Translations under genes and position numbers: made by a program | Shown: one piece after another, positions 720 through 58,078 of the stretch | How positions within the stretch are numbered: position 1 is the first letter of the stretch | Layout of the letters: each line of letters starts with the position of its first letter | The notes under the pieces: model-generated | Told to the model about the DNA's origin: nothing | Databases searched by the model: none | The model's input: only the letters and a program-made list of their open reading frames with translations | NCBI GenBank assembly: GCA_001823545.1 | Contig: MHUV01000006.1 | Span: 27,437-91,436, forward strand | DNA length: 64,000 nt | DNA from: Candidatus Yonathbacteria bacterium RIFCSPLOWO2_01_FULL_43_27 | Lineage (GTDB): Bacteria; Patescibacteriota; Minisyncoccia; Phycocordibacterales; UBA1550 | Reading direction: 5' to 3'

Positions 720-1382
720 ATGTATACATTTAAAAAAATTGTTACGTATATACTTGATATACTCTTTCCATATGAATGCGCAGGATGTCGCGCCCACGGC
801 GTACTGTTTTGTAACAGATGTCTTGAATCCTGCCCACGTGCCACATCCACAAAACATTCATTTATTTATGCCGTTTTTGACTACCAAAACCCCATAATAA
901 AGCGTTCATTATGGCGATTTAAATACGAAAATGTACGTGCTTTTGCAGAGATCTTTGCACGACCACTGTATGAAAAAATTCTTGATGAACTCTGTGATGA
1001 TATTGATACGCATCAACAAGAAAAATATCTCCTTATCCCTATCCCCCTTCACTCAAGCAGGCGTCGCGAACGTGGGTACAATCAAAGCGAACACCTTGCA
1101 CAAGGAGTTATGTCACACGATAATAGTAGTATTTTTGAATTCGCACCAGAAGTGCTCATACGTATTCGCAAAACAAAACCGCAAGCACGCGCAGAAAAAC
1201 GCACCTCGCGCATCACCAACCTTCATGAAGCATTTACGTGCCCCGACCCTACCCGCATTCGTGGACGCACGATCATTCTTATTGATGACGTAACAACCAC
1301 CGGCGCAACCCTCCTCTCTGCAAAACACACACTCTCCTCTGCACATCCACGCAAAATTCTTGCTTGTACCGTGGCGCATTAA
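720..1382 (+). CDS. ComF-family protein (phosphoribosyltransferase domain with N-terminal Cys4 zinc finger)
   Basis: CAGC...CNRC Zn-finger, then the PRTase motif TIILIDDVTTTGATL. Confidence 0.8.
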   Translation: MYTFKKIVTYILDILFPYECAGCRAHGVLFCNRCLESCPRATSTKHSFIYAVFDYQNPIIKRSLWRFKYENVRAFAEIFARPLYEKILDELCDDIDTHQQEKYLLIPIPLHSSRRRERGYNQSEHLAQGVMSHDNSSIFEFAPEVLIRIRKTKPQARAEKRTSRITNLHEAFTCPDPTRIRGRTIILIDDVTTTGATLLSAKHTLSSAHPRKILACTVAH

Positions 1383-1411
1383 ACAAGGGGCTCAGCCAAA
1401 CACGCAATTTT

Positions 1412-1437
1412 CGCTTTCAAATCCCTCATTTTTGCGC
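1412..1437 (+). repeat. Partial tRNA 3'-half-like repeat (CGCTTTCAAATCCCTCATT core), copy 1
   Basis: 19-nt exact repeat shared with 1587-1605. It contains a T-loop/acceptor-like TTCAAATCCCTCAT identical to the tRNA-Ser gene sequence but in inverted orientation. Confidence 0.5.
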
Positions 1438-1586
1438 AAAATATAATCGTGAACACGTTGTGTTCAACTTTTTATTTTGCGGAGGATGAGGGATGTTTGA
1501 CCAAGAACATTTTTTGTCGCCGTCGCTTCAAAAAATTTCTCAGTCCTGCTCACGCGACCCATTCTACTGAATGGGTTCCCCGCGTT

Positions 1587-1613
1587 CGCTTTCAAATCCC
1601 TCATTCCTCGCGC
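1587..1613 (+). repeat. Partial tRNA 3'-half-like repeat, copy 2
   Basis: Same 19-nt core as 1412-1430. Its 3' flank CATTCCTCGCGC resembles the acceptor end of the adjacent tRNA-Ser. Confidence 0.5.
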
Positions 1614-1655
1614 AATTATAACCACTCAAACGCTACGCGTTTTCGCGGACAATTG

Positions 1656-1741
1656 CGGAGGATGAGGGATTTGAACCCTCGAGACCCTTTCGAGCCTGCC
1701 GCCTTTCCAAGGCGGTGCACTAGACCACTATGCGAATCCTC
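1656..1741 (-). tRNA. tRNA-Ser (anticodon GGA), class II with long variable arm
   Basis: Manual fold: acceptor GGAGGAT/ATCCTCC, 3-bp D-stem, anticodon stem CCGCC/GGCGG with loop TTGGAAA, long variable arm, T-arm GAGGG-TTCAAAT-CCCTC, discriminator G. No encoded CCA. Confidence 0.7.
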
Positions 1742-1880
1742 CCTAGAACAAATTTGAAAAATTTGTTCGGGCGAGCAATTTGCGTAGCAAATTGCTTTAG
1801 CCGTAATCCCCACCACTGTAACAAAAAAACGCTATTTTTGCACGGAAAAATAAGTCAGACTTTTCTGATATACTACCCAC

Positions 1881-3530
1881 ATGAAGCAATCCGAAGCCCT
1901 CGCTATCCTCAAAATGGGACATAATGCGTTTATAACAGGCGCCGCAGGAAGTGGTAAGACACACCTCTTGAACGAATACATTCGCTATCTCCGCGAACAC
2001 AATGCACAAATCGGCATCACTGCTTCAACGGGTATTGCGGCGACTCACATGGGAGGCACGACCATTCACGCATGGTCGGGACTTGGTATCAGGGACACGC
2101 TGAGCGCATACGACCTCGAAGCGCTTGAGGAAAAACCGTATCTCTGGAAACGTTTCGAAAATGTGCACGTTCTTATCATTGATGAAATTTCCATGCTTCA
2201 TCATTATCGCTTGGACCTCGTGGATAAAATTGCACGTTCATTCAAAAGAACTGACAAACCGTTTGGCGGTATGCAAACGATTCTCTGTGGTGATTTCTTT
2301 CAGCTTCCCCCTGTATCACGCGCATACGAACGGCCCGCTGAGTTCTGCTATCACGCAGAGGTATGGGATAAGCTTGATCTCAAGATATGCTATCTCGAAG
2401 AACAACATCGTCAAGAAGATGGCGCGTACCTCGACATTCTAAACGCAATTCGTGACAATGCTGTTTCGCCAGAAACTACGCGCATCCTCGCCACGCGCAA
2501 GAATCAAAAACCAGAAAGTATTGCGGAGCCAACAAAACTCTACACCCATAACACTGATGTCGACACAGAAAATATGTGTGAACTTGAAAAAATTCCCGGA
2601 GAAACTTTTGAATACACCATGACATCAAAAGGAAGGGAAAATCTCGTTGCTATTCTCAAAAAAAGCTGTCTGGCACCAGAAAAACTTTGTCTCAAGAAAG
2701 GTGCGCGCGTAATGTTCGTAAAAAATAATTTTGAAGAAAAGTATGCGAATGGCACACTCGGTATTATAGAAGAATGTACCTCGCTCGGCATCAAAGTACG
2801 TCTCGCTAATAAGCGTATTATTGATGTAAAACCAACAAGTTGGCGAATTGACGAGGATGGCAAAGTGAAAGCAGAAATCACCCAATACCCCCTTCGTCTC
2901 GCATGGGCTATCACGATTCACAAAAGCCAAGGCATGAGCCTCGACGCCGCCTTGGTCGACCTCTCGCAATCGTTTGAAAAAGGTATGGGGTACGTCGCGC
3001 TTTCGCGCGTGCGCACACTAGGAGGACTTTCCCTGAAAGGAATGAACTCTAACGCCCTTGAGGTTAATCCTGAAGTTACTCTTTTTGATATACAATTTCG
3101 CGAGGCATCACAAAAGCATACCAAGAACCTTCACGCAAACTCTCCAGAAGAAATTGCGCGTAGTCATCAGGAGCATCTTAGAAAAGTAGCACCGCAAAAG
3201 AACGTGAAAGCAAAAAAAGTAGACACTACCGAGGAAACAATACGTCTCGTACGTGAAGGAAAAATGCTAAAAGAAATTGTCGCAATACGAGCACTTAAAC
3301 TAGGCACTATTTTGGACCATTTAGAAAAAATCAAAGAAAATGACCCCACTGTAGATCTCTCCCCACTCGAAAAAAATATGCCAAAAGCACGACTTCAAAA
3401 AATTATTCAAGCACTCAATAAGAGCGGTATGCATGGTGGCGTGTATTTACTCACCCCCACAAAAGCACTCCTCAGTAAAGATATTTCATTCGAAGAAATC
3501 CGCATCGCACGATTGTTATTAAAAAAATAA
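1881..3530 (+). CDS. Pif1/RecD-family ATP-dependent DNA helicase (AAA_30 P-loop) with C-terminal HTH-like extension
   Basis: Motifs GAAGSGKT, ITASTGIAA, LIIDEISM, GDFFQLPPV, TIHKSQG. Confidence 0.85.
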   Translation: MKQSEALAILKMGHNAFITGAAGSGKTHLLNEYIRYLREHNAQIGITASTGIAATHMGGTTIHAWSGLGIRDTLSAYDLEALEEKPYLWKRFENVHVLIIDEISMLHHYRLDLVDKIARSFKRTDKPFGGMQTILCGDFFQLPPVSRAYERPAEFCYHAEVWDKLDLKICYLEEQHRQEDGAYLDILNAIRDNAVSPETTRILATRKNQKPESIAEPTKLYTHNTDVDTENMCELEKIPGETFEYTMTSKGRENLVAILKKSCLAPEKLCLKKGARVMFVKNNFEEKYANGTLGIIEECTSLGIKVRLANKRIIDVKPTSWRIDEDGKVKAEITQYPLRLAWAITIHKSQGMSLDAALVDLSQSFEKGMGYVALSRVRTLGGLSLKGMNSNALEVNPEVTLFDIQFREASQKHTKNLHANSPEEIARSHQEHLRKVAPQKNVKAKKVDTTEETIRLVREGKMLKEIVAIRALKLGTILDHLEKIKENDPTVDLSPLEKNMPKARLQKIIQALNKSGMHGGVYLLTPTKALLSKDISFEEIRIARLLLKK

Positions 3531-3637
3531 TAGCTCGTAGTACTCTATTGGCGTCCAAACCTAATACCTATGATCTTGTAGCTGAGATTAGGTATTTAAT
3601 TAATAACCCACTAAAATAAAATTCTCGCCATCGCTAT

Positions 3638-3671
3638 CGACGTATAATATACTATAGTATATTATACGTCG
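3638..3671. repeat. 34-bp perfect palindrome CGACGTATAATATACTATAGTATATTATACGTCG, copy 1 (candidate operator)
   Basis: Exact self-complementary sequence, identical to 4247-4280. It carries TATAAT on both strands. Confidence 0.9.
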
Positions 3672-3686
3672 GGGGTGTAAAAAAAA

Positions 3687-4232
3687 TTATATTTTAAAAG
3701 TCTTTCTAAGTATGTCATCACCCTCGATACGTTCAGCGAGTATAAGTTTGATGTCCTTCCTCACATTAAAACATCTGCCTACAAAATCAATTTCTTCTTT
3801 GCAAGGAAATGGGGTAATGAAAACAGATTTTTGGTACTGAACACACCCAAGTTTTTTAAGAGCAAAATTTATTGAACGTCGCGCCTGTTTTTTATTTTCT
3901 GAGACATCAAACATAACAATACGCCATTTTCCATCCCATTTATCTTGATGGGTGATCTTCATTACTTCAAGTTTATGACGTAAAGCTTTTTCTTCTCCTT
4001 TTGTGGTTAAAATAAAACCATCCTCTCCCACATTTTTCCTCATAACGAGTCCTTGTTTTTCAAGACGAATAAGGGATTTTTTAATTCTATCTCGCTCAGG
4101 GGTATTTCTCGGTTTAAAATATTTAAAAAGCTGTACCGCATTAGGCATCGTAACCGCCACTGCAACTACCCCCGTAGCTAATATCAACGAAAGTATCATT
4201 TCTGCTATTTCTCCCTTATTGTATTTTTTCAT
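3687..4232 (-). CDS. Membrane-anchored winged-helix protein with C-terminal Cas2/PaaX_C-like domain (putative transcriptional regulator)
   Basis: N-terminal TM helix, wHTH-like LIRLEKQGLV...FILTTKGEE, then WRIVMFDVSE...ARR...LKKLGCVQYQKSVF, which resembles the Cas2/PaaX C-terminal pattern. The family assignment is by motif only. Confidence 0.45.
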   Translation of the reverse strand: MKKYNKGEIAEMILSLILATGVVAVAVTMPNAVQLFKYFKPRNTPERDRIKKSLIRLEKQGLVMRKNVGEDGFILTTKGEEKALRHKLEVMKITHQDKWDGKWRIVMFDVSENKKQARRSINFALKKLGCVQYQKSVFITPFPCKEEIDFVGRCFNVRKDIKLILAERIEGDDILRKTFKI

Positions 4233-4241
4233 ATTAATTTT

Positions 4242-4285
4242 AATATCGACGTATAATATACTATAGTATATTATACGTCGATATT
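4242..4285. repeat. Same 34-bp perfect palindrome (4247-4280), copy 2, extended to 44 bp by ATAT flanks
   Basis: Identical to 3638-3671. It lies 15 bp upstream of the ATG of the 3687-4232 gene and overlaps its likely -10 region. Confidence 0.9.
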
Positions 4286-4346
4286 GTTATTTAATTTTAC
4301 AAAATAGGTAGACGAAATACCACACTGTAATACACCTATTGAAAGA

Positions 4347-6321: not shown

Positions 6322-6358
6322 CACACAGAAAACACAAGGTTTGACCTTGTGTTTTCTG
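6322..6358 (-). terminator. 16-bp perfect stem-loop downstream of groEL
   Basis: CACAGAAAACACAAGG-TTTGA-CCTTGTGTTTTCTGTG. No clear U-tract. Confidence 0.45.
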
Positions 6359-6383
6359 TGTTCAAAACAGCCATATTGCAAAA

Positions 6384-8054
<1,671 letters not shown>

Positions 8055-8714: not shown

Positions 8715-8756
8715 GACCACGACCGGACCGCCAGTATTTTTTGTTTAGCAACACAT

Positions 8757-8793
8757 AGCCCTCACTCTCCGGAGTGAGGGCTATTAATTTTTT
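8757..8793 (+). terminator. Rho-independent terminator (AGCCCTCACTC-TCCG-GAGTGAGGGCT + ATTAATTTTTT)
   Basis: 11-bp perfect GC-rich stem followed by a T-rich tract on the + strand. Confidence 0.7.
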
Positions 8794-50547: not shown

Positions 50548-50591
50548 TTTTAAATTTAAACCCCTCTTGTTGCGTTACGCAACAAGAGGGG
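50548..50591 (-). terminator. Intrinsic terminator of the small-peptide operon
   Basis: CCCCTCTTGTTGCG-TTA-CGCAACAAGAGGGG 14-bp stem. On the minus strand it is followed by a U/A-rich tract (UUUAAAUUUAAAAU). Confidence 0.6.
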
Positions 50592-50636
50592 TTACTCTCC
50601 ATATTCACCATCTTGTGGAGGGGAAAAGAGAGGCCT

Positions 50637-56976: not shown

Positions 56977-57651
56977 ATGCCACGCATTACCCGTACCGAC
57001 ATCGGTAATCATTGCTACCATGTCATCAATCGCGCCAACGCTCGACTCCCCATTTTCTTTGCAGAACAGGACTACCTTTTATTTGAGGAAGTTTTGGAAG
57101 AAGCACAAAAGAAGTTTTCTATGAGGATCCTTGCGTATTGTCTTATGCCAAATCATTTCCACCTAGTACTCTATCCCATAAATGACGGCGATATGGGGAA
57201 GTTTATGCAATGGCTCACACTCACTCATACCCAGCGCTGGCACCAAGCGAACAATACAAAAGGAAGCGGACACCTCTATCAAGGGAGATACAAATCTTTT
57301 TTAATACAAGACGACAAACACCTTCTTTCCGTCATCCGCTATGTAGAGCGAAATTCGTTGCGTGCAAAATTAGTTAAAAAAGCAGAGAATTGGGGTTTCT
57401 GCAGTTTGGCGCGACGTCTTTCAGAGCACCCAGCAAAAAAGAAACTTTTGTCAGCGTGGCCGATACTTGAGCCCGAAGACTATCTTTCATTTGTTAATAT
57501 ACCTCAAACAAGAGAAGAAGAAGAACTCATCAGGGGGTCTGTTGTAAAAGGGAAGCCATTTGGCGCAGATGCATGGGCTATGAAAATGATCAAGAAGTTT
57601 GGGCTGGAAACTACTGTCCGACCCACAGGGAGACCCAAAAAGGGTACCTGA
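56977..57651 (+). mobile_element. IS200/IS605-family Y1 (HUH) transposase, RAYT-like
   Basis: HUH motif PNHFHLVL and the catalytic-Tyr motif RYVERNSLRAKLV (compare Y.ERNPVRAGLV of REP-associated tyrosine transposases). Confidence 0.7.
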
Positions 57652-57990: not shown

Positions 57991-58045
57991 GTATCGAAAG
58001 TGTTTGATGCAATAGTAGCTATTTCCGTTAACCCAACAAAAAACA

Positions 58046-58078
58046 CGGCTATTGATTTTAAAAATCAATAGCCGTGCT
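58046..58078 (-). terminator. Rho-independent terminator of argS
   Basis: CACGGCTATTGATT-TTTAAAA-AATCAATAGCCGTG perfect 14-bp stem. On the minus strand it is followed by TTTTTTGTT. Confidence 0.7.

Follow-up and report, generated by a model that had tools for sequence, protein, structure and literature searches.

The gene treated here, gene X, lies in a 64-kb stretch of DNA (the window) from Candidatus Yonathbacteria (Patescibacteria; the Pif1 protein of the window is 100% identical to locus tag A3B07_02475), encodes a protein of 181 aa and is flanked on both sides by the same long palindrome, an arrangement that we propose to be a small autoregulatory module. The closest described relatives of its product are PaaX regulators, which repress phenylacetate catabolism (E. 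coli, Pseudomonas; 8A39, 3L09; Rv0674, 3KFW); in these, as in the model of X, a winged helix is followed by a Cas2-like PaaX_M domain. E. coli PaaX represses its own promoter by exclusion of RNA polymerase and recognizes the site TGATTC-N27-GAATCA (PMC9493321); as of a 2022 review, no structure of a PaaX-operator complex had been reported (PMC9493321). PaaX is ~300-316 aa long and carries a PaaX_C (phenylacetyl-CoA) effector domain that X lacks. Its operator is a long dyad with ~6-bp half-sites ~27 bp apart, which the sites of X match by sequence geometry alone, and from which they differ in being fully symmetric 40-bp palindromes with a CTATAG centre, placed on both sides of the gene. X is further set apart by a strongly hydrophobic N-terminus, by its occurrence as several paralogues per genome and by its confinement to Patescibacteria. 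Its match to the PaaX profile TIGR02277 covers residues 49-149 with 32.6 bits against a cut-off of 264.55, and no paa genes are found nearby; because of this sub-equivalog score, the missing effector domain and the absence of paa genes, X was filed as a new, PaaX-related family and not as PaaX.

With Cas2, a protein of CRISPR adaptation, and the related toxin VapD, X shares the ferredoxin-like Cas2 fold of its C-terminal domain (Foldseek 0.96-0.98). Unlike Cas2, it has this domain fused to a DNA-binding domain, and no CRISPR array, cas1 or other cas gene lies near it. Repressors with a distant auxiliary operator are familiar from lac (O1/O2), deo (O1/O2) and gal (OE/OI), where the promoter bears one cognate operator and a second lies some hundreds of bp away; the sites have 14-20 bp, are non-identical and are not known to be placed regularly around the gene of the repressor itself. 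The ~610 bp measured centre-to-centre between the two palindromes of the window would lie within the range for deo. A layout like that of X is found where repetitive extragenic palindromic (REP) sequences accompany REP-associated tyrosine transposases (RAYTs): the gene is flanked by a co-evolving palindromic repeat, paralogues have repeat classes of their own, and extra copies occur between genes, often at gene 3' ends (PMC2817692). RAYTs are HUH/Y1 transposases, which X is not, and REPs are usually imperfect hairpins of 20-40 nt present in >100 copies per genome (PMC2817692), against two X palindromes in ~82 kb; the X unit resembles REP/RAYT systems in layout only.

Gene X and its two palindromes

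The 34-mer CGACGTATAATATACTATAGTATATTATACGTCG, a perfect palindrome, occurs at two sites in the window, one beyond either end of gene X (Table 1), and at no third site even at <=3 mismatches, with 0.00 matches expected by chance from shuffled sequences. Our scan agrees here with the preliminary description, made from the letters of this DNA, which had reported two identical 34-bp perfect palindromes, the second reaching 44 bp, and no further copy in 64 kb. The unit common to both copies is 37 nt long (3635-3671 = 4244-4280, 100% identical). Within the window, no other good match was obtained with the 12-mer core, the 8-mer ACTATAGT or the 15-nt arm, and the 10 kb past either window end contained no additional CTATAG-centred palindrome, the copy number being 2 per ~82 kb (window plus flanks). 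The stop codon of gene X is separated from the downstream palindrome by 15 nt and the upstream palindrome from the ATG by 14 nt; the bracketing had thus been described correctly, with each distance (16 bp and 15 bp) one too large. Each copy contains TATAAT on both strands, as already noted there, and the gene calls agree that the convergent neighbour across the downstream copy encodes a Pif1-type helicase. Compared with the orthologous loci L009 and L011, the upstream palindrome is an island of conservation in diverged intergenic DNA, and so is the downstream palindrome in its diverged spacer.

The structure of X was modelled with AlphaFold on the basis of 59 homologues (pLDDT, the predicted local distance difference test, 85). 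The model opens with a helix (residues 6-20), which precedes a helix-turn-helix bearing a beta-wing (35-75); a linker helix then leads into a domain of beta-alpha-beta-beta-alpha-beta topology. Foldseek ranked E. coli PaaX (8A39; 179 alignment columns) and Rv0674 first in the PDB, both matching along the full length; behind them came many Cas2 chains (several at probability 0.96-0.98) and VapD, which match the C-terminal half. A fold search was needed, as a sequence search of the PDB gave PaaX at E ~0.1 only; in a sequence alignment, residues 50-109 of X pair with residues 57-116 of E. coli PaaX. The C-terminal domain was assigned to Pfam PF20803 (PaaX_M, 'central Cas2-like domain') with 65 bits against a cut-off of 24, and the same domain was found in every listed homologue of X. 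The Pfam scan of X returned no PaaX_C match, and the protein ends directly after the Cas2-like domain, at residue 181. For the N-terminal part there was no match to the Pfam PaaX N-terminal domain at E<=1; the model shows a helix-helix-wing topology. The Cas2/PaaX-like fold first proposed from the sequence is borne out by Pfam and Foldseek, the winged helix before it is drawn by the AlphaFold model, and the label PaaX_C given to the second part has to be replaced by PaaX_M.

Cas2 profiles cover only residues 103-140 of X, about the first 37 residues of the domain (profile positions 2-39). TIGR01573 (Cas2) passes its cut-off marginally (25.5 against 24.5 bits), PF09827 stays below (21.1 against 23.8), and PADLOC reports a weak Cas2 N-terminal similarity alone. 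Depending on the source, homologues are named 'Cas2', 'PaaX' or 'hypothetical', the first of these names in some database records following from the marginal pass of TIGR01573; the NCBI name 'CRISPR-associated endonuclease Cas2' for members of the family is almost certainly wrong, and appears to be a systematic mis-annotation in Patescibacteria. A CRISPR link was rejected on this partial and marginal match together with the lack of an array and of cas neighbours, and a role as a defence system on the PADLOC result. Hallmarks of Cas2 that X retains are an Asp closing strand 1 (in MFD) and a stretch like QKSVF. Within the X family, Asp109 (motif MFD) and Q134, K135, S136 and F138 of the motif YQKSVF are invariant, Y133 and V137 nearly so; E. 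coli PaaX has Glu at the position of Asp109.

The N-terminus of X reaches a Kyte-Doolittle hydropathy of 2.39 over residues 9-27 (19 residues), which is of transmembrane (TM) grade and typical of the family (median 2.4, minimum 1.97), and no charged residue occurs between E11 and K37. In the AlphaFold model, residues 6-20 are packed into the winged-helix domain as its first helix and followed by a loop, and no single long helix is predicted. A membrane anchor is plausible from the sequence, with an ambiguous topology. As the homologues in L013 and L100 sit in pilus clusters, a type IV prepilin-like N-terminus (MKKYNKG, then EIAE...) was also considered. Pilin signal peptides have a hydrophobic residue after the Gly and a Glu at +5; in X, Glu follows the Gly, the next Glu is at +4 and not +5, and no N_methyl match was obtained, and the idea was rejected.

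Table 1. Coordinates of gene X, its predicted domains and the flanking sites in the window
Feature	Position	Strand	Remarks
Gene X, 181-aa PaaX-like protein	3687..4232	-	hydrophobic N-terminus, winged helix-turn-helix, linker helix, PaaX_M; without PaaX_C
Hydrophobic segment IAEMILSLILATGVVAVAVTM, residues 9-29	4146..4208	-	membrane anchor or buried helix 1 of winged helix
Winged helix-turn-helix, residues 31-76	4005..4142	-	helices 35-39, 44-59; wing strands 63-65, 72-75 (model)
PaaX_M, Cas2-like, residues 97-171	3720..3944	-	beta-alpha-beta-beta-alpha-beta; Pfam PF20803 E 6.9e-18
Upstream palindrome	4242..4285	strandless	44-bp perfect dyad, centre between 4263 and 4264, core 34-mer 4247-4280
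Downstream palindrome	3635..3671	strandless	perfect dyad 3638-3671; between stop codons of gene X and convergent Pif1
Candidate sigma-70-type promoter	4253..4281	-	-35-like TCGACG 4281-4276, 17-nt spacer, -10-like TATTAT 4258-4253

Dyads across the family

For the comparison of flanking sites, 8 genome loci, 80 metagenome loci and several more that were fetched by exact protein were assembled. For each homologue the best dyad was sought in the 200 bp upstream and the 250 bp downstream of the gene, and counted if it scored >=12. The resulting 70 unique loci span 28-100% protein identity and are all from Patescibacteria. An upstream dyad was present in 56/70 of them (~80%) and a downstream dyad in 54/70 (~77%), with a median arm of 22 nt; at the median, the upstream dyad is centred 40 nt before the ATG and the downstream dyad 53 nt beyond the stop codon. 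The centre reads CTATAG in 46/56 upstream and 40/54 downstream sites; in the most distant relatives (~28-39% identity, including a Saccharibacteria locus) its place is taken by CACGGCCGTG.

Across 97 unique sites, positions 1-20 from the dyad axis are complementary in 81-100% of cases, with all four types of Watson-Crick pair observed at positions 4-22. Within a locus, the two copies match each other at positions 4-6 and 10-20 at frequencies of 0.67-0.92, compared with 0.28-0.74 between loci; they agree less at positions 7-9 and not at all beyond 21. From these profiles of pairing and agreement, the element is a dyad of 40 bp in which the centre is universal, the signature positions are specific to each locus and the block at 7-9 is free. 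The arms, common to both copies of a locus, differ between paralogues on the same contig (L043/L076; the two genes of L100), and the bases flanking the core track the protein subclades. At loci whose two copies are unlike at positions 7-9, each copy is still symmetric in itself (L011, AATATA and CTGATA; also L029), a pattern that suggests selection for a hairpin or cruciform, or templated correction of quasi-palindromes. At L013, a 73-nt insert divides the downstream palindrome of a homologue of 69% identity at its exact centre and leaves the two 28-nt arms whole (6549-6677); either DNA may have inserted into the middle of the dyad, or the site may be a variant with a larger loop.

The window copy downstream of X is the sole downstream site of the set with a TATAAT block in both arms, which suggests that it was recently converted from the upstream one. 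That the two window copies are perfectly identical is probably the extreme of the family-wide pattern, brought about by recent conversion between them. Downstream dyads accompany co-directional next genes in 26/37 and convergent next genes in 17/21 cases. Being present whatever the orientation of the next gene, the downstream copy is not just that gene's operator, and we rejected an operator of the next gene's promoter as its general function, given that it is as frequent with convergent neighbours.

In relatives, family palindromes also occur singly and away from X, with ~8 of them in ~400 kb of flanks. They were found between folA and glyA in L001, between a dCMP-deaminase-like gene and dut in L032, between convergent genes in L017 and L090, and after alaS in L090. 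According to the preliminary description, copies scattered beside unrelated genes would indicate a REP-like element rather than an operator; such copies exist in L001, L017, L032, L090, L095 and L096, and none was found in the window. The solitary sites of L001 (2560-2614), L017 (2888-2940) and L032 (2571-2621) lie 1.1-1.4 kb upstream of X and carry a TATAAT-type block in both arms. In L001, two perfect sites bracket glyA, and X's own downstream site is degenerate. The L001 and L032 sites stand beside thymidylate/folate genes (folA and glyA; the dCMP-deaminase-like gene and dut-tmk) and could be X-controlled promoters.

The content of the slot between the Pif1 and HtpX genes varies among relatives. 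It holds palindrome, X and palindrome in the window, in L009 (Pif1 93% identical) and in L011 (Pif1 66%); in L094, the contig breaks at the palindrome. L095 has one 46-bp CTATAG palindrome (2179-2224) and no gene, L096 has the palindrome of L095 (5651-5698) plus a response-regulator gene, and L097-L099 have other small genes and no CTATAG palindrome. The solitary palindromes of L095 and L096 share an identical core of 42 nt, CTGACTATGTATACGATACTATAGTATCGTATACATAGTCAG, their Pif1 proteins being 69% identical, and correspond to the downstream site of the paralogue P0106 (L046/L100), which lies elsewhere, in a type IV pilus cluster. Identity over 42 nt of intergenic DNA implies strong constraint, concerted evolution or transfer. 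The paralogues P0106 and P0081 are found in one Yonathbacteria metagenome-assembled genome, and a solitary site of the L096 type appears to share a genome with its cognate protein.

A proposed autoregulatory operator pair and competing explanations

We consider it moderately probable that the two palindromes are the cognate operator pair of a minimal, autoregulated PaaX-type module, in which the upstream copy is the primary, autoregulating operator, the downstream copy serves as an auxiliary operator, loop anchor or roadblock and to which a few sites elsewhere belong in some genomes. The palindromes are read as operators on account of the PaaX operator, whose geometry matches the signature positions: the PaaX site is a 39-bp dyad with half-sites 14-19 bp from the axis, and the family signature lies at positions 13-19. 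Together with the co-occurrence of gene and dyads across the family and their co-variation, this sequence-level match makes it very probable that the palindromes are X's own binding sites. In the preliminary description the arrangement had been called a textbook case of autoregulatory operators; we keep operators as the probable reading, and do not adopt the word 'textbook', as operators on both sides of a gene are unusual.

The promoter call is a consensus-scan result with 9/12 matches. It places the candidate sigma-70-type promoter of gene X within the upstream palindrome, in line with the earlier suggestion that this copy overlaps the gene's likely -10 box, and transcription would start near the gene-side edge of the palindrome. 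TATAAT-type blocks occur in 12/50 upstream versus 2/47 downstream sites, in the clade closest to the window, and in the asymmetric upstream sites of relatives the block lies on the gene-proximal arm in 5 cases and on the distal arm in 1.

In the mechanism that we infer, X would bind the ~40-bp dyad as a dimer or higher oligomer; it consists of a winged helix and a Cas2-like domain for dimerisation, lacks a C-terminal domain for ligand binding and may have its hydrophobic N-terminus inserted in the membrane. The invariant centre (CTA and TAG on either side of the axis) would be common to all sites, specificity would reside at 4-6 and 13-19 bp from the axis, and positions 7-9 would be free. In the upstream copy, these free positions would form the -10-like TATAAT/TATATT and the distal outer arm would supply the -35-like hexamer, with the whole promoter inside the dyad, and X, once bound, would keep RNA polymerase out and shut down its own expression, in the manner of PaaX at its Px promoter. 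The downstream copy would be a second cognate site, acting as an auxiliary operator in a repression loop of ~600 bp and/or as a roadblock or boundary at the 3' end.

Several points weigh against this interpretation. The -10-like boxes are found in ~1/4 of the upstream sites, mainly in the clade nearest the window, and a fully symmetric site of 40 bp exceeds the needs of a dimer. The symmetry at positions 7-9 suggests a cause beyond protein contacts alone. The solitary sites of L017, L090, L095 and L096 lie between convergent genes, where no promoter is in need of an operator. The invariance of Asp109, which takes the position of the catalytic Asp of Cas2 and VapD and is replaced by Glu in PaaX, hints at a catalytic function outside the operator model. 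Finally, if residues 9-29 formed a true TM helix, which is ambiguous, the winged helix would start at the membrane surface, an awkward position for DNA binding.

The foremost rival, which we regard as unlikely, treats the unit as a cassette that can move or be excised, or as the 'master copy' of a REP-like family with few copies; the palindromes would serve as substrates for recombination or as hairpin substrates, with X recognising and cutting them or helping host enzymes in their spread, excision or homogenisation, and with the solitary palindromes as empty sites or dispersed offspring. The polymorphism of the slot between Pif1 and HtpX would be expected of such an element, as would a palindrome that is identical over 42 nt in L095 and L096, despite Pif1 proteins of 69% identity, and equals the downstream site of P0106; ordinary homologous recombination between repeats would yield the same polymorphism without dedicated mobility, and X has diverged between the window and L011 (71%) much like its neighbours (Pif1 66%, HtpX 80%), which fits vertical descent with losses. 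Extra copies at the 3' ends of unrelated genes and several scattered paralogues per genome, with no conserved neighbour, would likewise suit dispersal, as would a GC content of gene X on the low side (8th percentile); the copy number, at 2 in ~82 kb and ~8 solitary sites in ~400 kb, is tiny, and a search of viral contigs yielded no relatives. RAYTs provide a precedent for a gene flanked by its own REPs, REPs usually numbering >100 per genome (PMC2817692). The invariant Cas2-type Asp could belong to a cutting activity; a recombinase search of X with Pfam and NCBIfam detected no HUH/Y1, DDE, serine or tyrosine recombinase domain, and PaaX_M and Cas2 only. The mobile cassette put forward in the preliminary description has real, though indirect, support from the slot polymorphism. 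A broader version, in which Patescibacteria-wide and hitherto unrecognised self-bracketed modules encode an X with a Cas2-type Asp and a membrane anchor that recognises private ~40-bp CTATAG palindromes and, beyond its own repression, either maintains, spreads or excises them, as a non-HUH counterpart of REP/RAYT or of a gene cassette, or tethers the chromosomal sites so marked to the membrane, appears to us improbable.

Distinctly unlikely is the view that the palindromes are mainly nucleic-acid structures independent of X, either RNA hairpins for termination or stabilisation or insulating cruciforms, with gene conversion keeping the copies similar. High stability is predicted for RNA hairpins of the window palindromes (-21.7 and -25.7 kcal/mol, z -6.4 and -8.0), and Rfam gave no match at the palindromes, even at E<=1. 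Neither copy has a proper U-tract in the direction of local transcription, as already stated in the preliminary description, and the only terminator-scan match at a palindrome (4242-4285, + strand) is antisense to both flanking genes; a T-run follows the downstream site in 8/47 cases across the family, and canonical intrinsic terminators were rejected for both window copies. Arm mismatches on the sense strand, at 34 GT against 27 AC, show no G.U bias, which together with the rarity of T-runs argues against a purely RNA-hairpin role. Structure would account for symmetry kept at positions that differ between a locus's two copies, for the arms kept in L013 on both sides of the insert, and for solitary copies at terminator-like convergent positions, where other relatives have palindromic A-tract/T-tract terminators; it would not lead one to expect an invariant CTATAG, clade-specific flanks and a strict tie to one protein family with paralogue-specific arms. 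Moreover, a transcript starting at the palindrome edge, as proposed above, would leave the upstream hairpin incompletely transcribed. At convergent junctions of relatives, A-tract/T-tract palindromes of 40-50 bp were observed (e.g. L097 5645-5688), and gene ends in the window, e.g. that of groEL, are followed by further long hairpin palindromes, perfect or nearly so (6323-6361, 8755-8784 and 50559-50593), which are probably terminators.

A site-specific chromosome-organising or membrane-tethering factor that pins its own locus and a few further sites, like a centromere-binding protein with its sites on either side of its gene (in par2 of plasmid pB171, parAB lies between centromere-like sites), or a toxin-antitoxin-like module made of a single chain, with a Cas2/VapD-like RNase or DNase under tight autoregulation, is very unlikely as an account of X in place of an ordinary transcription factor: the conserved N-terminus of TM-grade hydropathy, sites on both sides of X's gene and at non-promoter positions, at least three paralogues with private sites in one Yonathbacteria population, a patchy, scattered distribution like that of toxin-antitoxin modules and the invariant Asp109 would agree with it, against which stand the absence of a partner ATPase or antitoxin gene adjoining X, an AlphaFold model without a TM helix, weak Cas2 N-terminal matches in PADLOC, and PaaX_M being known as a dimerisation domain and not as a nuclease.

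Genomic setting, distribution and significance

The gene order around X is ComF-like, tRNA-Ser, Pif1-type helicase (+), X (-), HtpX/M48 protease (-), LemA (-), DUF805 and GroEL/ES, with the M48/HtpX protease gene as the upstream neighbour of X. The GC content of gene X is rather low, and its rank at the 8th percentile is not decisive as a compositional sign of horizontal transfer. The window contains no CRISPR or other tandem array, and no paralogues of X or further sites; no cas genes were found among the genes called within 10 kb, nor in the annotated homologous loci. For the window and the 10 kb around it, the absence of a CRISPR array and of other cas genes asserted at the outset is upheld.

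Within the stretch made up of window 720-3530 and the 10 kb upstream of position 1 (L102 1-9835), a type IV pilus/competence block (PilM, PilB-like T2SSE, response regulator, second T2SSE, PilC-like T2SSF) lies ~3 kb from the module. Next to it come the genes for a ComF-like phosphoribosyltransferase (720-1382), for tRNA-Ser and for the Pif1-type helicase, which has a C-terminal HTH_40 domain. The homologues in L013 and L100/L046 likewise lie inside pilus clusters. This closeness may be due to chance, as a census of the neighbours at 73 loci found no conserved neighbour: only housekeeping genes were seen, with a maximum of 8/73 for any neighbour family. The module is accordingly free-standing, and X as the regulator of a conserved neighbouring operon was rejected on the same count. 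Far from the module, an open reading frame of 224 aa (56977-57651, +) has a Pfam Y1_Tnp domain of the IS200/RAYT-type HUH transposases (gene table of L103), and a 33-bp palindrome, CACGGCTATTGATTTTAAAAATCAATAGCCGTG, lies ~400 bp past it (58044-58076), unrelated in sequence to the CTATAG palindromes.

About 200 close homologues of ~181 aa were collected, and all those with an organism name are from Patescibacteria. A profile search of 1.84 billion cluster representatives (50% identity) showed the family to be large, with 287 clusters retrieved at E<=1e-30 and a total of 2440 when the threshold was relaxed to E<=1e-10. Viral contigs yielded no relatives of X and PHROGs nothing significant, and a phage origin was rejected on these grounds. 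Several paralogues are present per genome, scattered among housekeeping genes, and at least three with private sites in one Yonathbacteria population. In the literature searched, no paper mentions PaaX with Cas2 and none ties bacteria of the candidate phyla radiation (CPR) to such palindromes; the palindrome-gene-palindrome architecture is conserved in Patescibacteria and undescribed in that literature.

Patescibacteria (CPR) have tiny genomes with few recognisable regulators, and almost nothing is known of their gene control. In the X family, the probable DNA target of each member can be read from the flanks of its gene, which amounts to ~100 natural protein-operator pairs whose specificity positions are clear, useful for decoding PaaX-type recognition and for predicting regulons in uncultivated bacteria. 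The analysis also corrects the Cas2 annotation in some database records. Should the cassette, REP-like or membrane-tether explanation be true, X would represent an element of a new kind with the Cas2 fold as its basis, and a protein of this fold with a specific link to palindromic repeats outside CRISPR would be relevant to the way in which Cas2 and the CRISPR repeats became associated.

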